Origin: a virus
Taxonomy: Duplodnaviria; Caudoviricetes
Virus record (IMG/VR): IMGVR_UViG_3300021426_000073
Span: 32,001 to 96,000 of that record
Reading direction: 5' to 3' (one strand)
DNA: 64,000 nt
The notes beneath the pieces were generated by a model that saw only the letters and a list, made by a program, of their open reading frames with translations, was not told the DNA's origin and did no database searches. Of this stretch, positions 6,338 to 43,533 are shown piece by piece; position 1 is the first letter of the stretch; each line of letters starts with the position of its first letter. The position numbers and the translations under genes were made by a program.

Positions 6338-9321
6338 TAACAAAAAATATAATTAGATTAGATAAAAATACTAAAACTGTTTATACTCCTACCCTAACTC
6401 TTATGACAAGGGATTTTAAGCCATTAGGTAAAATAAGCAAATATTTAAATTGGAATATATCATTGCAAGCAAATGGCGTTGACGAAATATCTTTTGATGT
6501 TAATAAAACCTATTACGATGAATATGGGAATAAAATAACTTGTCCAGTATGGGATAATCTAATAGACTTGAAAATTGTTGATGTTGATGGATTAGGCAAG
6601 TTTGAAATAACCGTATCATATACAGATAATGCTGAAACTATCAAATCTGTTCACGGACAAAGTTTAGAAGTTGAATTAGGACAAGTGTACTTAAGAGATT
6701 TCCACGTCAATGATGAAGAAGCAATAACTGGCGAAATAACAGAATATAATAAAATGCACTTTGATGCAAGAGGCAATTTTATATCTACAGTTTTTTATGA
6801 CCCTAAAAATAAGTACAATTCATTATTGCATAGAGTTTTAGCAGATAAAGCTCCGCATTGGAGTATAGGATATGTAACACCTTATGTAACTATAGGTGAA
6901 AACGAAGAAGCTGAAAAGGTCGAAGATTTTGTGCGAACATATACTGTTGATGGTACTGACATATATAGTTTTTTAACTGAAGATGTTGCGAAAGAAACTA
7001 ATGTTGTATTCCTGTTCGACACAAACACAAGAACTATTAACTGCTATAGTTTAGAAGACTGTTATGTTGATGGTGAATTAGTTCAAAAGGCTATAGGTGA
7101 AGATACTAATGTATTAATTTCAAAAAAGAAACTCGCTAATGAAATAGGCATAGAATCAAATAAAGATGATGTAAAAAACTGCTTTAGAATATCTGGTGGC
7201 GATGATTTAATCACATCACAAATTGCTGCTGTTAATATGACTGGAAGCAATTACATATATAAGTTTGCTGACTTTCAATTAAATGATATGCCTGAAAGAT
7301 TGCGTAATAAAATCATAAGTTATCAAGCATACGCTGATAGCAGACGTGATGAATACTATGGTGAACACGGTATATATACTGAATTATGTAATGCTTATCA
7401 AACGTTAAATTATCTAAAATCAGAAATGATGCCAGACAGTACATTAAAAGAAACCAATGCTGAAAAACAGTATGAAGATATTGTAGAAAAACTTCAAAGA
7501 GGTGTCGGCATGGAAGACACTAATCGAAGCTTAGGGATTGTAAATAATAATGTATCTGCTATGGCTGAAGTATATTGTGATAGTCGATATAAAGTTTCTT
7601 TGATTAAGACTAATGCTACTTACTCTCCATCAACAAGAAAATGGAAAGGACAAATACAAGTAGTACGTACGACAGACGAAACTGATTCCTTCCCTACTTT
7701 GCCTAGTATGCTAGATAGAACTTTTGAAGTACCAATATTAACAGACGATGATAACTTAACATATACAAAGCAAAAACTAGAAAAGGCTCTTGCTAAAAAT
7801 GACATGACATCATTAAATGCAAGTTTTGATGAGAATGAAAGTACGGATCAAGAAATAAAAGAACAACTTGAATTGTATTGTTTAAATATGCTTAAGAATT
7901 TTAGAGATGGATACGAGAATTGTAAGAGCGTATTGTACAATACAAATCAATATACTACTTCAACTGATGCTATACCTAATGGACTTTATCAAAAATATAA
8001 TTCTAGATATCTTATTGCTTGTGAAGTATATGATGCACGAAAAAAGGAAGTTGATGATGTTCAGGCTTTAATTGACGAGTTGACTGTTAAACAACGTAAA
8101 TTCCAAGACGAGTTAAATTTTCCTAATTATTTGGTAAAAAACGAAGATGATGGAATTGAATTATATCGAATCTTTTGTTCGTATATTAGAGAAGATGAAT
8201 ATTCTAATAGCAATTATATATCAGATGGTTTAGAAACTACTAAAGACCTTATAGATAAAGCACAAGAACTTTTAGATGTTGCTGAAGCACAGTTAGATAA
8301 AGCTTGCGTATTGCAAAGAACAGTTTCAGTATCTCTTAATAATCTTCTTATACTTCCAGAGTTTGAAAGCTTATATGATAGTTTTGAATTATTTAATTAT
8401 ATTCGTGTGCGCAGCGAAGATGAATTATTCAAATTAAGGATTATAAGCATAGAGGTAAGTGGAGAAAACTATGCTGATATAAACGTAGGCTTTGCCGAAA
8501 GAGTTGAAGCTTTAGATGGTAAAATGAGTGATTTGCAAAGTATTGTTGCTCAAGCTTCTGCTATTGCTTCTTCTTACGATTCTACTATGCTTCAAGCAAA
8601 GCAAGGCAAACAAGCTAATGACGATATATATGAAATGTCAGTAGATGGAATTAATACACAAAAATATAGCGTTACAAATAGTAATGACAATGAATTAACT
8701 ATTAATTCTTCAGGATTACTTGCACGCAAAATGACAGACGAAGGTGTATATTCTCCAAAACAATTAAGAATAACTAACAACGGAATGTATTTGACAGATA
8801 ACAATTGGACTACTATTAAAGAAGCTATAGGCGAGGTAAAGTTTGACAACGGTGATGTTGCCTATGGAATCATAGCTGATAATATAATTGGCAAATTCAT
8901 TCTAGGAAGTAATCTCAAAATAAGTAACGGAGAATCTTCAGTTTCCATAACTGGAGATTATATAAAAATTGGCACTTGTGCCGAGTCTGATAATATTCAT
9001 ACGATAGGCGATTATACTGGTGTTGGATTATTTAAAGATGGTACGGTAGAGTTCGGTTCTGAAGATACAACAAATCCAAGTCAAACATTTAAGTCTAAAG
9101 CAACATTTGATATAAAAAGAGGTTTTATTATTACTGGAAATAGTGATATTACTAGTGAAAGTAATAATCATTCTCGTTGGAATTATGAATTAGTATTGAA
9201 CCCTATTATGAATGGCACGCCAAGTAGCCCGATAATTTCGTTTAGTGCCACTCCTGATGGCAGTTCTACGCCTTCATTTTTATGGCATATAGATCAGAAC
9301 GGACATATAAGCGTTGGTTAA
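6334..9321 (+). CDS. Tail tip / Tal-like minor structural protein
   Basis: Overlaps the Dit stop (ATGA). N-terminal beta-rich hub domain, coiled coil, C-terminal KQLRITNNG...DNW motif typical of prophage tail proteins. Confidence 0.75.
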   Translation: MITKNIIRLDKNTKTVYTPTLTLMTRDFKPLGKISKYLNWNISLQANGVDEISFDVNKTYYDEYGNKITCPVWDNLIDLKIVDVDGLGKFEITVSYTDNAETIKSVHGQSLEVELGQVYLRDFHVNDEEAITGEITEYNKMHFDARGNFISTVFYDPKNKYNSLLHRVLADKAPHWSIGYVTPYVTIGENEEAEKVEDFVRTYTVDGTDIYSFLTEDVAKETNVVFLFDTNTRTINCYSLEDCYVDGELVQKAIGEDTNVLISKKKLANEIGIESNKDDVKNCFRISGGDDLITSQIAAVNMTGSNYIYKFADFQLNDMPERLRNKIISYQAYADSRRDEYYGEHGIYTELCNAYQTLNYLKSEMMPDSTLKETNAEKQYEDIVEKLQRGVGMEDTNRSLGIVNNNVSAMAEVYCDSRYKVSLIKTNATYSPSTRKWKGQIQVVRTTDETDSFPTLPSMLDRTFEVPILTDDDNLTYTKQKLEKALAKNDMTSLNASFDENESTDQEIKEQLELYCLNMLKNFRDGYENCKSVLYNTNQYTTSTDAIPNGLYQKYNSRYLIACEVYDARKKEVDDVQALIDELTVKQRKFQDELNFPNYLVKNEDDGIELYRIFCSYIREDEYSNSNYISDGLETTKDLIDKAQELLDVAEAQLDKACVLQRTVSVSLNNLLILPEFESLYDSFELFNYIRVRSEDELFKLRIISIEVSGENYADINVGFAERVEALDGKMSDLQSIVAQASAIASSYDSTMLQAKQGKQANDDIYEMSVDGINTQKYSVTNSNDNELTINSSGLLARKMTDEGVYSPKQLRITNNGMYLTDNNWTTIKEAIGEVKFDNGDVAYGIIADNIIGKFILGSNLKISNGESSVSITGDYIKIGTCAESDNIHTIGDYTGVGLFKDGTVEFGSEDTTNPSQTFKSKATFDIKRGFIITGNSDITSESNNHSRWNYELVLNPIMNGTPSSPIISFSATPDGSSTPSFLWHIDQNGHISVG

Positions 9322-21221: not shown

Positions 21222-22103
21222 ATGAGTGTAAATAGATATAACTCCGCAACAGGAGAACTTGAAAAAATTGCAGGTGGTACCTTATATGCGGATGCACCGA
21301 TTGGTACTATTAGTCCTTTCGGTGGTTCAGCGATCCCTAGTGGATATTTACTTTGTGATGGTACGGAGGTTCTTAAAACCGCCTACGCAGAGTTGTATGC
21401 AGTAATAGGTGATGCTTTCGGAACAGCGAGTGATAATACAAAATTTGTGTTGCCCGATTTAAGAGAGGCTACAACAAAAGGTGTTGGATTAAGCGGCAAA
21501 AGTGAAAATCATTATAGTGAAACTGGTGTTGTCCTCGGTGAGTTTATAGAGGATAGATTACAGTCACATACTCATGGTATTAGAAATGGTTTTGATGGTG
21601 CTGACCCCGATAGTGCAGAACGTGGTGATGGTAGGCATGGCTACTCTGCCAAATCAAATGATGCGTCGGGACGTACTGGTAACACTACCGAAGTTAAAGC
21701 AGTAGGTGTCAACTACATCATCAAAGCTAAACAGATTGCAATACCTGCTGACATTCAGTCAGCCATTGAAGAACAGAACTCCTACTCTACTGAGGAAACT
21801 TATACTGGCAAGAGATGGATAGATGGTAAACCGATTTATAGAAAAGTGCTTGTAAGAACAGGAAGTGCCTCTGGTACGGGTGAATTAACAATAGGAACAA
21901 TTGACAATTTTGCACAACTTGTCAATATTACAACTATAACAAATTCAAATGCTGGTAGCAACCAAGAGGTAGAATTTTATAGATATCGTGATAGTAGATT
22001 ATTGATATCAAATGGAACTGCGGCAGTCAAGATGGACAGGGTTAGTAATTACAATATTGACAAAGTAACTATGATTGTAGAATACACCAAAACTACAGAT
22101 TAA
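21222..22103 (+). CDS. Tail collar domain fibre protein
   Basis: PIGTISPFGG..IPSGYLLCDG...YAELYAVIG...FVLPDLR collar motif; C-terminal YSTEETYTGKRWIDGKPIYRK domain. Confidence 0.85.
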   Translation: MSVNRYNSATGELEKIAGGTLYADAPIGTISPFGGSAIPSGYLLCDGTEVLKTAYAELYAVIGDAFGTASDNTKFVLPDLREATTKGVGLSGKSENHYSETGVVLGEFIEDRLQSHTHGIRNGFDGADPDSAERGDGRHGYSAKSNDASGRTGNTTEVKAVGVNYIIKAKQIAIPADIQSAIEEQNSYSTEETYTGKRWIDGKPIYRKVLVRTGSASGTGELTIGTIDNFAQLVNITTITNSNAGSNQEVEFYRYRDSRLLISNGTAAVKMDRVSNYNIDKVTMIVEYTKTTD

Positions 22104-29858: not shown

Positions 29859-29884
29859 GAAATCAATCAGCTAATATAGCTTAA

Positions 29885-29961
29885 CAGGAACTCGGGGAAT
29901 CGAACCCAAAAAACGACTTCTGATTTTGGAGATCAGCGTGCTACCATTACACCAAGAACCT
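29885..29961 (-). tRNA. tRNA-Trp(CCA), atypical (two U-U acceptor mismatches, longer variable loop)
   Basis: Minus: AGGTTCT TG GTGT AATGGTA GCAC G CTGAT CT CCA AA ATCAG ... TTGGG TTCGATT CCCCG AGTTCCT G. Confidence 0.75.
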
Positions 29962-30072
29962 ATGTACGGTTTATAGTTAACCGCAAACTGCACATCACCG
30001 ATATTAGCCTGAAGCATTAATTAACTTAACACCTCACTGAGTTTCGGTATCATTTGCTCTCTAACTCTCGCA

Positions 30073-30146
30073 TAAGGATGACAAGATTTGAACTTGCAAT
30101 TTCAGAGTACCAAACTCTGCGTTCTGCCAGATTGAACTACATCCCT
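30073..30146 (-). tRNA. tRNA-Pro(UGG)
   Basis: Minus: AGGGATG TA GTTC...GAAC G CAGAG TT TGG TA CTCTG ... GCAAG TTCAAAT CTTGT CATCCTT A. Confidence 0.9.
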
Positions 30147-30168
30147 AATAGGTATATATACCTTAGAA

Positions 30169-30249
30169 TAGGAAAGAAAGGATTTGCACCTTTGAACCCG
30201 AAGGAACGGTTTTACAGACCGCCTGCTTTGTCTACTTGCATACTTTCCT
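30169..30249 (-). tRNA. tRNA-Tyr(GUA)
   Basis: Minus: AGGAAAG ... GCGGT CT GTA AA ACCGT, variable arm CCTTCGGG, AAAGG TGCAAAT CCTTT, CTTTCCT A. Confidence 0.85.
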
Positions 30250-30682
30250 AAGAGGTTTCCGCACGGCAAAAGTCTTTCGATGAAAATCCGTATGGCAATT
30301 TTCACTCTATTCATCAAGAGGTATAAAAAATGAATAGTATGTTAACCAACAAAAAAGTTGATTGCTAACGACTATATGCGGCAAAAGACTTTCGTGGAAA
30401 ATCCGCATCAAGAAATTTTCCTATGATTGGATTGAATCAAAATATATGAAAAAAATATTGGAGTATATTGTTATACACTTTCTTAATGATAACTACAACA
30501 ACGGTTTGCCTATCCTAAAAACAAATATAAGAGAGTATAATACTCAGTTACAAACAGTTGCTAAGAAAAGTTTGTTTTATCCCCATTATAGCTATGCTAC
30601 AAAAAGCAAACCGTTGTTAGCTATCAATTTTAAAAATCCTTTACAGTGGGTTTAAGAGTAACTTATAATTACTCCACGCACT

Positions 30683-30775
30683 CTGAGTCTCCCACGGCTA
30701 AAGTCGAAGGATTCTTGGGACTAGTAGATTAATATCCACTTTATTACCAAGCTAACCGGACAACTCCTGCCCTTA
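30683..30775 (-). ncRNA. Orphan TnpB-type omegaRNA / IS605 right-end scaffold with no adjacent tnpB
   Basis: Minus GGGCA-GGAG-TTGTCC, TAGC, CTTGG...CCAAG, GTGGAT-ATTA-ATCTAC, AAT CCTTCGACTTTAGCCGTGGG AGACTCAG. Same stem order as the reRNA at 42305-42400, with compensatory changes. Confidence 0.7.
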
Positions 30776-30976
30776 TATTTATATTATAAAAATAATATCA
30801 TCAATAATTCACATAGCACTTGGTGCTAAACAATGTCAATGTAAATATATGTGTATAGGAATTAATACAATAAAAACAAAAAAGGTTTGGTTTTCACCAC
30901 TAAATTAATGGAAGATTTTTCTACCAAATGCTATGTGAAATGCTGCATCAATTCTCTATGATTTTTGTCTAGTTAA

Positions 30977-31049
30977 CGGCGGTAATAGGATTTGAACCTA
31001 TATCATTGGAGTCAAAGTCCAATATACTAACCACTTGTACTATACCGCT
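30977..31049 (-). tRNA. tRNA-Gln(UUG)
   Basis: Minus: AGCGGTA TA GTAC...GTAT A TTGGA CT TTG AC TCCAA ... ATAGG TTCAAAT CCTAT TACCGCC G. Confidence 0.9.
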
Positions 31050-31169
31050 AAAGTAGGACGGTTTTAAAGTCAACCAACTACTTATCTTTACTGTTGTTTT
31101 GTTATCAGTATAATTGATTATTTTAAGAAAGGAGGCTAGTCTGGAACTAGCATGCCTACGATAAAAAAA

Positions 31170-31243
31170 TTGCGGAGATTGGATTTGAACCAATGACCTT
31201 GAGTTTATGAGACTCACGAGCTACCGAACTGCTCTACTCCGCT
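31170..31243 (-). tRNA. tRNA-Met(CAU), initiator-like 1:72 mismatch
   Basis: Minus: AGCGGAG TA GAGC AGTTCGGTA GCTC G TGAGT CT CAT AA ACTCA ... ATTGG TTCAAAT CCAAT CTCCGCA A. Confidence 0.9.
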
Positions 31244-31318
31244 ATGTTACCAAACGAAAAATAAACATTTTCGAAGGGAGTTCAATAAATATTCACTTGT
31301 TTCATTTGGTATGCCTTA

Positions 31319-31364: not shown

Positions 31365-32780
31365 TTATATTTTTTTTAATTCATCATCATAAGACATTTT
31401 ATAAAAGCCTATATCTTTAATAGTATTCTGCGATTGATTAAACTCTAATATAATCTGATTATCAGCATCGCCAAAACGATTTTTTAAAAAGAATACTATA
31501 ATATACTTACTACTATCATTTAATGTAATAAGTTTCTTTTGTCCGTTTTCTACTATAAAAGGTTTTATATACTTCTTCTCATTATCGGTTAAATGTCTAA
31601 AGGCTATACCTACAGCTGCACATTCACATATAGCCTTTGATTTTCCTACGCTAGTCTGATCCAAAAACTTGTTATGTAAAGAGTCCGTAGCTAATTGTGC
31701 TGATGCAATTATAGCAACGTTTTCTTTTTTTGCTATACAATATAATTCTTTGGCATTATCAGCTAATTCTGCCCACGCTTTGTCGCTAGAATCTTTAACT
31801 GGTTTTAATACATCATAAAAGAAATATTTGCAACCTTGCTTTGACATTTTTCTGATTACCTTTTTAACATTAACTATATCATAGTTATCCATAGCCTTAA
31901 ATCTGATACGCCCTTTTTGAGCACCTATCCATGCAATAGCTTCTTCTACTTTTTGCATTTGTTCATCATTATAAGAACCTTTCATTATTTTAGCACGAGT
32001 CAAGCCTGTATCATCTATAATCTTGCTAAACAATACAGTTGATATAATCATATTTCTCCATTGCTTTGAGTTTTGCTCATTACATATAATAGTTATTGTC
32101 TCTCCATCTTCTATTGCTGGAAGAATAAACAATGGTACAGATGATGAACTCTTGCCCTTTCCACCGCCAGCAATCACCAACATAAGTTCTCCTCTGTGAA
32201 CGCCTGATGTAGTATAGTCAATAAATTGGCTACCCATTCTAAAACCAATATTCTTTTTATTGATAACTTCTTTAAGCCACTCATTATAACCTTCAGAGTC
32301 TGACAAGTCTTCTATTTCTGATTTTTGAATACTAGTTAGGTTTATGTCTGATAACTTATACTCATAGTAATCGTACACTTCTTCGCAAGACATATTAGCA
32401 AACTCTTTTAAGTTTTCTAAAACATTGAATCCTTCCGAATGCAATTTGATTAAGAAGTTAGATTTAATTAATTCATCGTAATACGCTTCTATATTATCTA
32501 TATTAACAGACTGTTTCAACTCACCAAACTGTTTGTATTGCTTCTTTATTGATGGTTTAGAATCTAGGTAGTTCTTTACGGATACTTCATCTGCTGATTC
32601 ATACCCTAATTTATACATATTAGAAATAATGCCGTAATAAATTTTTCCAGAATCTGTTATTATATCTGTACCATTTATTATGTTTTTATAATCATCACAT
32701 AAACTTATATCCTTGTATAACGATGCTATAAAGTTTAATTCTATTGTTTCTCTGTTTTCTAATAATTCATTTGGAATCAT
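31365..32780 (-). CDS. DnaB-like replicative helicase (SPbeta-type)
   Basis: Walker A AGGGKGKSS, ICNEQ, FFYD, ASAQL, KNRFG motifs. Confidence 0.85.
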   Translation of the reverse strand: MIPNELLENRETIELNFIASLYKDISLCDDYKNIINGTDIITDSGKIYYGIISNMYKLGYESADEVSVKNYLDSKPSIKKQYKQFGELKQSVNIDNIEAYYDELIKSNFLIKLHSEGFNVLENLKEFANMSCEEVYDYYEYKLSDINLTSIQKSEIEDLSDSEGYNEWLKEVINKKNIGFRMGSQFIDYTTSGVHRGELMLVIAGGGKGKSSSSVPLFILPAIEDGETITIICNEQNSKQWRNMIISTVLFSKIIDDTGLTRAKIMKGSYNDEQMQKVEEAIAWIGAQKGRIRFKAMDNYDIVNVKKVIRKMSKQGCKYFFYDVLKPVKDSSDKAWAELADNAKELYCIAKKENVAIIASAQLATDSLHNKFLDQTSVGKSKAICECAAVGIAFRHLTDNEKKYIKPFIVENGQKKLITLNDSSKYIIVFFLKNRFGDADNQIILEFNQSQNTIKDIGFYKMSYDDELKKI

Positions 32781-40423: not shown

Positions 40424-41665
40424 TTAAACTACATTATTAAGCCAATATATTTTATTATATTTCCAAAGTAACTTACATTTTTTAGCATTAACCTTTTTAC
40501 AATGCTTTGTAGGACTTTGGAAATTCAAAGCATTTAGTTCGGGATATAGGGCTGTAACATAGCCTCTATGCGTTTCTCCATTTTTGAATGTGTATTCCAC
40601 TAAATCTCTATGCTTGATACCTAAAACATTATCTGTATTTGCTTTGCTTTGCCTACGCATAGGTTTAATAATCCACTCTTTAATATCCGTAGTATCAGGT
40701 TTTAAGTTTGTAATACAGACAGCGTCGTTTGAATGTGATTTATCTATATCCCAATCAATACGCTTATTTGCGGTATCGCCACCATTAGTTAAATACAAAG
40801 TACCAAGTTCAGATAATTGTTTTCTTAACCAAGTTTTACCTATCATTACGTGTTGTGCATAATTAAGTTTTTTTGTATCATAAGTAAAAAGCATATCGAA
40901 ATAATGTTGCATATACTGTTCTTCTTTACCTTCTGTCTTTTGATGGCATTTGCTACATAAAGTAATCATATTATCAAAAGTGTTAGAACCATTTAATCTT
41001 CGTGGTTTAATATGATGTACTTCAAGTTTAGTATTAGTTTTACCACATTCCATACACTTATAATTATCTCTAAAGATTACCGCTTTACGTATGTTTTCAT
41101 CTAATCTATTAGATTTTTGATACTTCCACCTATAAGGTTTGTATCCATCAGTTAATGCTCTTATATCTATCGCAACATCTTCAAGCCAATAAGAATTAAT
41201 ATTGATCCATTTATTAAGTTGGTTGACAACTCTTAATGTTGCTTGACGTTTTTGTAATATACTAGGAGCGATACGTTCTTTTCTTTTTAAAGATTTACGA
41301 TTATTAAATCTAGCTTCACGATACCTTTTATGGTATCTATGGTATCTTCTATAACCTCTACGTAATTCCATTAAATGCTTTACATCATTTCTTTGTTCTA
41401 TTGTTCCTTTGAACAATGTTTTGTTTTTAGTCTTGCATTTCTGCACTATTGCAATACCTACGTGTAAACCACCATCATCTATACCACATCGTATTTCATC
41501 TTTGCATATTTCATCATCAGGTATAGTGCGTTTAAGTTGTATCACCATAGGATACTTACTAACTAATTTAGCCTTACCTTTTCGAATCATATACCATGCC
41601 TTTGTTTCTTTTGTTGGTGATAATGGTTTTCCATCAGCATCCAATACAAATGCATAATTTGTCAT
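40424..41665 (-). CDS. iscB: IscB RNA-guided endonuclease
   Basis: PLMP-like GKPLSPT, RuvC-I GIDDG, Arg-rich bridge helix, RuvC-II LEDV, HNH (VHHIKPR...N...CH), RuvC-III SHSNDA; catalytic residues appear intact. Confidence 0.92.
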
Positions 41666-42286: not shown

Positions 42287-42400
42287 TAGCAAATAAGCAA
42301 GTTCGTGAATTGCTCATGATTAAAATCATAAGCTTCCTAGTCAATATTCCTAACGGAACAAGTTTACCTAGGCTATCTCTGTGATTCCCACAGTTGTCAT
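42285..42400 (-). ncRNA. TnpB reRNA/omegaRNA with flank-derived guide (GAACTTGCTTATTTGCTATT...)
   Basis: Scaffold overlaps the tnpB 3' end; the guide begins right after the TCAC right end. Confidence 0.75.
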
Positions 42401-43533
42401 CCTCAAACCTTCGTTGAGAATATTTATTGCAGCATTTATATCTCTTTCATGATGTATACCACAAATAGGGCAAGTCCATTCTCTAATAGATAAAGTTTTC
42501 TTACCGTCTTTATATCCACAACTAGAACATATTTGACTCGAAGGATACCATGTATCAATTTTTATAATTTCACGACCATACCATTCAGCCTTATATTCTA
42601 ATTGTCTTACAAATTCACTCCAAGATACATCTGCTATTGCTTTTGCTAAATTATGATTTCGCATCATATTTTTAACCTTAAGACTTTCTAGTACTATAAC
42701 TTGATTTTCGTTAATTAGTTTTTTAGAAAGTTTGTGTAAAAAATCTTTTCTTTGGTTAGTTATCTTTTCATACTGCCTTGCAACTTTTATTCTACATTTT
42801 TCTCTGTTTTTACTATCTTTCTTACATCGAGATAAATCCTTTTGCAGTTTCCTCAATTTTTTCTCTGCTTTTAGAAAATACTTTGGATTATTTATTAACT
42901 CTCCGTTAGAAGTAATAGCAAATTCTTTTATACCAAGATCTATTCCTATTTTGTTTTTATTTGCAGATAATTTATGTTGTTCCATAGTATCTACTAAAAC
43001 AGAAACAAAATACTTTCCAGATGGATTTTGAGAAATTGTAACCGATTTTATTACTCCGTTAAAATCTCTATGCTTCTTTACTTTAACTAATCCAATTTTA
43101 GGTAACTTGATATACTTGTTGGTTATTCTTATATTATCTTTTTGGTTATTTGTAGTATAAGAATTATAATGATTCTTCTTACTTTTAAATTTAGGATGAC
43201 CAACTTCAGGTCTTTTAAAGAAGTTATTGTAAGCAGTTTGCAAATTTAGTTGAGCATTTGCTAACGCTAGCGAATCAACTTCCTTAAGCCAAGTAAATTC
43301 TTTTTTATATTGAGCAGGAGTATTGTTAAGCTTTTGTTTTGTTTGTTTATAATATTCAATTTTGTCTGCAAGCATTTTATTGTATATAAAACGAACGCAC
43401 CCAAAGCATTTGGAAAAATATATCTGCTGTTCCTTGTTTGGATACAATCTATATTTATAAGCTTTAAGCATAAACAACTCCTTTCTGTAAACGTTCATTA
43501 ACTCATGACTAAAGTCACAAGTATGCTTTCACA
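42305..43533 (-). mobile_element. IS200/IS605-family, TnpB-only (IS1341-like) element
   Basis: Inserted 3' of TTGAT (43534-43538, overlapping the TGA stop of 43535..43747). Left-end hairpin ACTTGTGACTTTAGTCATGAGT; right-end hairpin GCTTATGATTTTAATCATGAGC ending in TCAC; no tnpA. Confidence 0.85.
42368..43471 (-). CDS. tnpB: TnpB RNA-guided endonuclease
   Basis: [10 protein letters not shown]-terminus, RuvC GIDLG, VLESL, zinc finger [19 protein letters not shown]; AAGGAG RBS before ATG 43471. Confidence 0.92.

Follow-up and report, generated by a model that had tools for sequence, protein, structure and literature searches.

Why should the tRNA array of a phage contain an RNA scaffold of the kind used by the nuclease TnpB, when the tnpB gene of this phage is located about 11.6 kb away? 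We addressed this question for a virus record of 112,063 bp with direct terminal repeats, bases 32001-96000 of which form the window, that is the whole 64-kb stretch of DNA analysed here. A first-pass annotation of the window had described a scaffold on the strand of the tRNA genes with the same stem order as the omegaRNA of the resident TnpB, and had proposed either a second guide, which would give a new target to a TnpB of the phage or of a host or would serve as a decoy, or a decayed insertion sequence (IS) remnant. The features discussed below are collected in Table 1.

Homology to known scaffolds was assessed with two covariance models, both built without the orphan scaffold. An alignment (A1) of 91-114 nt segments ending at right ends was assembled for 13 TnpBs on viral contigs that are related to the resident one, with the orphan left out, and has a consensus fold of 26 pairs, 14 of which exhibit double changes (12 relatives). 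The first model (R1), built on this alignment, was derived from 12 tnpB-linked scaffolds of the resident lineage and was run on both strands of the window with filters off. The orphan was the second-ranking match and was full length (29.0 bits, E 7.9e-5), while the next match scored 12.7 bits. The second model (R2), from nine scaffolds of a second lineage, matched the orphan at full length with 69.2 bits (E 7e-14) and the resident omegaRNA with a lower score of 60.2 bits; among 64 further tnpB-linked matches the orphan was mid-range. These matches, which run from 30774 down to 30683, bear out the location and strand given in the first-pass annotation, and they establish homology in both sequence and structure to scaffolds lying directly 3' of intact tnpB genes. 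Judged from its sequence, the segment at 30683-30774 (- strand) is a genuine full-length TnpB omegaRNA scaffold without a gene or a left end. The whole 112-kb genome contains two such scaffolds, the orphan and the resident, and no third. Weak, non-significant matches at 21880-21966 (- strand; R1 12.7 bits, E 0.6, ending in TTCAC) and at 8282-8370 (- strand; R2 15.4 bits, E 0.13) are probably due to chance.

The minimum-energy fold of the orphan alone was no better than those of shuffled sequences (z -0.29) and did not reproduce stem 1, and the case for the orphan therefore rests on homology and covariation and not on thermodynamics. This unremarkable fold, together with Rfam searches in gathering and E-value modes that returned tRNAs and noise only and no match to the scaffold, might point to a chance look-alike or to another structured RNA of the tRNA operon. 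The likelihood of this is practically nil: it is refuted by the scores of two independent models (E 8e-5 and 7e-14, both over the full length) and by the coincidence, to the base, of the end of the model match with an insertion junction defined by sister phages. A blastn search of the region against the phage GenBank collection gave no match, and an exact 26-mer of the scaffold was not found in IMG/VR.

Table 1. Features of the orphan scaffold, its surroundings and the resident TnpB element (positions in the window)
Feature	Position	Strand	Details
tRNA array	29884-31244	-	Five tRNA genes: tRNA-Met, tRNA-Gln, 725-nt gap, tRNA-Tyr, tRNA-Pro, tRNA-Trp; scaffold within gap
Promoter-like site heading tRNA array	31347-31319	-	TTGACA-17-TATACT
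DnaB-like helicase gene	31365-32780		Adjoins tRNA array
Left flank up to tRNA-Gln	30776-30975	-	Common to sister phages; no tnpB or left-end remnant
Orphan omegaRNA scaffold, lineage 2	30683-30774	-	92 nt; AA before stem 1 through right-end TCAG; R2 model positions 1-92
Stem 1	30758-30772	-	5' arm 30772-30768, loop GGAGT 30767-30763, 3' arm 30762-30758; 0/5 pairs broken
Stem 2 with inner hairpin	30714-30751	-	30751-30747 with 30718-30714, enclosing hairpin; 0/5 stem-2 pairs broken
Inner hairpin	30723-30740	-	30740-30734, loop 30733-30730, 30729-30723; 0/7 pairs broken
Right-end hairpin	30691-30710	-	30710-30703, loop TTTA 30702-30699, 30698-30691; 2/5 modelled pairs broken (U.U, A.C)
Pseudoknot tail ACTC	30685-30688	-	Pairs with loop 30766-30763 (GAGT); 4/4 pairs kept
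Would-be guide	30663-30682	-	DNA flanking right end; 100% identical in L324 and L316, there directly after 23-24 unrelated nt
Resident tnpB	42368-43498	-	Pfam OrfB_IS605, Cas12f1-like_TNB, HTH_OrfB_IS605; likely start Met at 43471
Resident omegaRNA scaffold, lineage 1	42305-42395	-	R1 95.4 bits; ends TTCAC; guide from 42304 downward

As an RNA the orphan looks whole, since on pairing of its sequence stem 1, stem 2, the inner hairpin and the pseudoknot contain no broken pairs. The stem pairs named in the first-pass annotation (GGGCA/TGTCC and CTTGG/CCAAG) were correct and correspond to the stems of the model, as was the TCAG end compared with TCAC in the resident scaffold. The first pair of stem 1 is G-C in the orphan and C-G in 59 of 60 relatives, a double change, and the arms of the inner hairpin, which are closest to those of L254, differ from most relatives yet still pair, with a closing U-A in place of C-G. 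The pseudoknot retains all four pairs through two double substitutions, such that the loop GGAGT (for GGAAC) is complementary to the tail ACTC (for GTTC). Four of 18 invariant columns of the lineage are missed by the orphan; these departures, like most of the other bases that set it apart, are paired, as matched double changes. We therefore rejected decay as an explanation for the departures from invariant columns, as they are mostly paired double changes.

Support for these helices comes from 60 distinct scaffolds (alignment A6), in which 94.5% of cells are paired across the whole structure as compared with 74.5% in shuffles and 31-47% when partners are slid, and in which 28 of 30 pairs show double changes (0/500 shuffles as high). 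A6 was fitted to the model, which biases these values towards the nested helices; the four-pair pseudoknot helix lies outside the model and is 95.4% paired over the same 60 scaffolds, with double changes in three of its four pairs. The orphan thus has covariation-backed helices that include a loop-to-tail pseudoknot. In A6 the covarying columns are 9-12 with 190-194, corresponding to the stem-1 loop and to a four-base tail that stops two bases short of the end of the scaffold. The resident RNA has its own version of this pseudoknot (42386-42383 with 42310-42307), with a double change (loop GGAAT, tail ATTC). The pseudoknot of the orphan agrees in layout with the one in the ISDra2 cryo-EM structure, which joins nucleotides -5 to -3 to -103 to -105 by base pairing and is stacked on stem 1 (PMC10097598).

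The right-end hairpin differs from the other helices. Two or more broken pairs in this hairpin occur in only 6 of 66 aligned scaffolds, and it pairs throughout in the close tnpB-linked relatives L222, L227, L230 and L232, which were read directly. In IS608, an analogous hairpin is recognized and bound by the TnpA transposase. By analogy, the two mismatches indicate that the orphan is probably immobile.

Comparison of sequences shows that the orphan belongs to a different omegaRNA lineage and is no copy of the RNA of the resident TnpB (42305-42395). It keeps 22 of the 35 columns that are conserved at >=85% among 77 tnpB-linked lineage-1 scaffolds (75 from bacterial genomes), and it lacks their junction motifs and GTTCAC end; a cognate guide of the resident TnpB would carry these near-invariant motifs and end in TTCAC, and the orphan does neither. 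R1 ranked it below 75 of the 76 tnpB-linked scaffolds that it recovered, the TnpBs of which are 55-82% identical to the resident. A pattern from the stem-2 region of the orphan identified 13 viral loci with a second type of scaffold, ending in GGTTCAG or GTCAA. Several of these lie directly 3' of intact tnpB genes and others are gene-less mini-elements in which a left-end hairpin is fused to the scaffold. The nearest scaffold, L254, shares 68 of 92 positions and the same inner hairpin, and a scan of viral contigs for the orphan-specific inner hairpin found the contig of L254 alone; the TnpB of this closest gene-linked relative shares only 52% identity with that of our phage. In the 112-kb genome as a whole, tnpB gave a single match, the resident gene, consistent with the earlier statement that none is nearby, and the phage thus appears to encode no nuclease of the matching lineage. 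Use of the orphan by the resident TnpB is doubtful because the scaffold lineages differ.

TnpBs of the second lineage are common in large phage contigs, many of which derive from metagenome 3300045988, also the source of most relatives of the resident TnpB. Phage contigs with both lineages have a TnpB for each (L019 with L267; L017 with L284 and L308). In L222 (6359-7648, - strand; the same locus as L235) the tnpB frame of 430 codons has no stop before the right end and reads through the entire omegaRNA scaffold and about 100 nt into flanking DNA. In another phage contig a lineage-2 tnpB element (L267:640-800) is inserted a few tens of bases past the 3' end of a tRNA gene, and tRNA neighbourhoods may be a recurrent landing place for such elements. 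An IscB-type gene (Pfam RRXRR and HNH; window 40424-41665, - strand) adjoins the resident tnpB. In L316 an IscB-type gene with the same two Pfam domains (L316:2716-3969; not aligned to ours) is immediately upstream of the helicase gene, and hence these genes occupy different loci in the two phages.

The history of the site was examined in related phages. Helicase homologues (69% identity and below) led to contigs L315, which is the same phage, and L316, a relative, while L324 was the only match in a scan of metagenome contigs with 22 nt of the right flank; the same scan of viral contigs and a peptide-pattern search for the helicase in IMG/VR found nothing. Over 11.7 kb, L324 and our phage share 97.5% identity; L316 is 78-96% identical to our phage block by block, with 91-93% in the flanks of the site. 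Both align to our phage up to window position 30776 and resume at 30682. In place of our 93 nt (30683-30775), these sisters have 23-24 unrelated nt (L324:449-471), and R2 found no scaffold on L316. The right junction is located exactly at the TCAG end of the scaffold. The scaffold thus stops where the transposon does, and its guide consists of flanking DNA; over the following 60 nt, which take in the entire 'guide', all three phages have the same sequence. On the other side, the flank is common to the sisters to within 1 nt of the scaffold, which agrees with the reported lack of a left-end hairpin, and the 201 nt between tRNA-Gln and the scaffold are entirely shared flank with no gene. The annotation had looked to related phages either for a scaffold kept with varying guides or for an empty site; L324 and L316 show the empty site. 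This absence of the scaffold from both sisters, and the complete conservation of the 'guide' as flank, speak against a second guide that has been maintained for retargeting or as a decoy.

The local tree is ((ours, L324), L316). As the short form is present both in L324, the closest phage, and in the outgroup L316, gain of the scaffold in our lineage is the parsimonious history. In the 205 nt upstream of the left junction our phage and L324 differ at four positions, none of them more than 46 nt from it, and the 100 nt downstream are free of differences; this clustering fits a repair or recombination patch and could be a co-conversion tract from homing. The opposite history, in which the scaffold is ancestral and was lost by the sisters, leaving 23-24 nt as filler or scar, is unlikely. 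At 11 of its 12 positions, a 12-mer of the short form agrees with stem 1 of certain lineage-2 scaffolds, the short form ends in the stem-2 word CTTGGT, and local trees can be misled by the mosaicism of phage genomes. The resemblance to stem 1 is, however, not significant, as 94 of 500 shuffles and 146 of 1000 random 24-mers of the phage genome score as high, and the sisters' 23 nt were thus rejected as a decayed scaffold; nor are they copied from elsewhere. Moreover, flanks that are 97.8-99.5% identical to L324 lead to an expectation that a homologous remnant would be near-identical to our scaffold, which is not the case, and the same short form occurs in the more distant L316.

The region of the tRNA array is plastic, and the arrays of these near-identical phages differ. 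Ours has the order Met-Gln-(scaffold)-Tyr-Pro-Trp, that of L324 (174-2465) is Gln-(short form)-Pro-Thr-His-Ser-Tyr-Leu-Trp and that of L316 (5532-7475) is Met-Gln-(short form)-Gln-ORF222-Ser-Trp, where the extra ORF222 (222 aa) has a sub-threshold match to HNH_3 (20.5 bits against a cut-off of 24.8). The more distant helicase relatives P0005, P0008 and P0011 have no tRNA array at this place and are uninformative. An open reading frame on the + strand (30362-30655, 97 aa), antisense to the tRNA operon, was rejected as a gene: it is intact in L324 and has stops and frame changes in L316. Because of this disruption, the 430 nt from the scaffold to tRNA-Tyr are probably non-coding and possibly a structured RNA. 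A 15-nt motif, ACTAGACAAAAATCA, lies directly after tRNA-Gln (30959-30973, - strand); L324 has the same sequence and L316 a slightly altered one.

What could a guide at this position target? There is no second copy of the guide in the phage genome. A 14-mer scan of viral contigs in IMG/VR gave at least 120 matches; among the matches listed, the exact run never exceeds 17 nt and none is preceded by TTGAT, and these look like chance matches. Between these listed matches and the exact 22-nt scan, the sole perfect match outside this phage is the unoccupied site of the sister phage L324. The first-pass annotation had suggested that targets be sought behind a TTGAT; the five bases before the sister target are TTGGT. 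The guide is a pre-existing flank, as at every IS605 right end, and not a chosen or selected spacer.

The target-adjacent motif (TAM) fits imperfectly. A TTGAT is present upstream of the scaffold as the annotation had noted (30804-30800, 28 nt upstream of stem 1), but it is not the TAM of this insertion, because the sequence is TTAAT in both sisters and the difference is a lineage-specific base change in shared flank. The left end of the resident tnpB element is preceded by TTGAT (43538-43534), the left ends of relatives of this element follow (T/G)GAT, as also in L267/L277, and the lineage-2 relatives with a visible left end (L236, L237, L247-L249) suggest a TAM of TTTAT. Neither lineage would thus find a perfect TAM in the TTGGT of the sister site.

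We consider it most likely, with a probability of roughly 0.68, that the orphan is a recently gained and immobile right-end remnant of an IS200/IS605-type element or mini-element, of a lineage unlike that of the resident, and that its role is most likely none. The right-end module, comprising the omegaRNA scaffold and cleavage site of an IS200/IS605 element or of a gene-less mini-element resembling a PATE, would have reached the plastic tRNA array in the recent past, or have been brought in from a relative by recombination. The loss of about 23 nt of old flank presumably also removed the left end and any tnpB, and with its left end gone the piece could no longer transpose. Gene-less mini-elements of this scaffold type in phage contigs L224, L225 and L226 (two copies) are possible donors. 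Counting against a remnant, the segment unique to this phage is almost exactly the scaffold (93 nt as compared with a 92-nt model), an outcome that a random deletion would seldom produce unless the donor was already a mini-element. As the scaffold has the same direction as the tRNA operon, it is probably transcribed within that transcript, and the resulting RNA would still possess every helix and the pseudoknot that a TnpB would need. Activity in trans is possible on this basis, and its only conceivable form may be ordinary TnpB 'homing', with cutting of the unoccupied allele of the sisters. Other observations also run against a remnant: no pairs are broken where TnpB matters, the scaffold shares its strand with a tRNA operon that has a strong promoter, the guide matches the sister allele at 20 of 20 positions and the four substitutions near the left junction could be a co-conversion tract. 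The compensated scaffold fits a working RNA, though the changes may predate the insertion. The alternative offered in the annotation, a decayed IS remnant, was thus essentially right as to the remnant and wrong as to decay, since the helices relevant to TnpB and the pseudoknot are intact.

These observations bring into question whether the RNA works in trans. One possibility is that it is a guide for the phage's own TnpB, with the RNA cut from the tRNA transcript and loaded by the resident lineage-1 nuclease, which would then cleave sisters without the insert and either convert their allele (homing) or harm a competitor in co-infection. The intact helices and pseudoknot, the shared strand with the tRNA operon, the perfect match of the 20 nt past the scaffold to the unoccupied site in L324 and L316, and the clustering of substitutions on one side of the junction are all consistent with such a guide. 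It also shares its architecture with the resident RNA, to which R2 gives 60 bits; TnpB itself can process the 5' end of omegaRNA (PMC10278001); and the omegaRNAs of PATEs are thought to use TnpB in trans (PMC10055086). We nonetheless regard this as improbable, because the R1 score is only 29 bits and below 75 of 76 tnpB-linked scaffolds, the near-invariant single-stranded motifs of lineage 1 differ in the orphan, contigs holding both lineages encode a TnpB of either one, the TTGGT of the sister site departs from the apparent TAM TTGAT and from the (T/G)GAT of relatives, and the two nearest relatives have not conserved the module.

Any activity of the orphan would need a TnpB made elsewhere, because there is no nuclease gene in the piece, and the RNA could instead serve a foreign lineage-2 TnpB of the host, a co-infecting phage or another element, such that the phage parasitizes or decoys this nuclease. 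The 69-bit fit to lineage 2, a score also seen among scaffolds that accompany intact TnpBs, and the frequency of lineage-2 TnpBs in large phage contigs suit this proposal. It is very unlikely given that no lineage-2 tnpB is tied to a host, that the guide has no match beyond the sisters (in the genome, in the 22-nt scan of metagenome contigs and among the matches listed in the 14-mer viral scan) and that relatives have not conserved the module. A further speculation, to which we give rather little credence, is a gene-less 'hitch-hiker' drive, made from the tRNA-operon transcript and loaded in trans by the resident TnpB across the lineage gap or by the lineage-2 TnpB of another element. If true, this drive would cut the exact unoccupied allele of sisters in co-infection and be copied in with a short tract of left flank. 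There are hints of this in the compensated pseudoknot, which indicates an RNA still fit for loading, and in the substitution cluster beside the junction, which could be traces of conversion.

Taken alone, an immobile right-end remnant such as the orphan is an ordinary by-product of IS200/IS605 activity in phages. Its value lies in the comparisons that it permits. Phages that are about 97.5% identical and have occupied and unoccupied alleles, with the junction placed to the base, provide a ready substrate for studying TnpB homing between co-infecting phages. As the lineage of the orphan is not that of the only TnpB of the phage, the pair is a clean test case for the range of cross-reactivity between TnpB and omegaRNAs. 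Finally, covariation in 60 phage scaffolds for an ISDra2-like pseudoknot may aid in telling intact from decayed orphan scaffolds.

Among known systems, the orphan most resembles the ISDra2-type omegaRNA (reRNA) of IS200/IS605 TnpB, in which the scaffold likewise ends at the right end and the guide is the flank (Karvelis 2021, PMC8612924; Nakagawa 2023, PMC10097598). It shares with these RNAs a multi-stem fold and a pseudoknot in which a 5' loop pairs with the nucleotides that immediately precede the guide (PMC8612924, PMC10097598). Unlike them, it lacks both a tnpB in cis and a left end, it is of another sub-lineage than the one TnpB of the phage and its activity is putative. It is also not a complete IS200/IS605 or IS1341-type element, in which tnpB, with or without tnpA, lies between two ends.

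An omegaRNA-type guide can be used beyond transposon maintenance, as exemplified by TldRs, and in this respect they are a parallel for the orphan. Wiegand and colleagues reportedly found that TldR guides adjoin their protein gene and have spacers matching a host promoter. TldRs are nuclease-dead repressors derived from TnpB that use guide RNAs and sometimes occur in prophages (Wiegand et al., PMC10705468). The orphan, unlike these, has no adjacent protein, and its guide is only local flank.

Altae-Tran and colleagues are said to have described stand-alone omegaRNA loci in 2021. PATEs are gene-less mini-elements of the IS200/IS605 type with omegaRNAs that need TnpB in trans (Meers et al. 2023, PMC10055086), and TnpB-omegaRNA complexes normally cut the unoccupied allele (Meers et al., PMC10055086). 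The orphan is similar to a PATE in consisting of an omegaRNA scaffold and a right end without a nuclease gene. A PATE, however, has a left-end hairpin with a TAM as well as a right-end hairpin and retains both ends, so that it can be mobilized by TnpA, whereas the orphan has no left-end hairpin, its left flank being shared to within 1 nt of the scaffold, and two mismatches in its right-end hairpin make it a dead end and no mini-transposon. Mini-elements without a gene, each with a left-end hairpin fused about 13 nt ahead of a complete lineage-2 scaffold, occur at L224:6030-6122, L225:5882-5974 and L226:5938-6030 and 6894-6986, the two copies in L226 being 950 nt apart, and these look like true PATEs of the RNA lineage of the orphan. 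Stand-alone omegaRNAs are thus already known in the form of PATEs, and the orphan adds one more.
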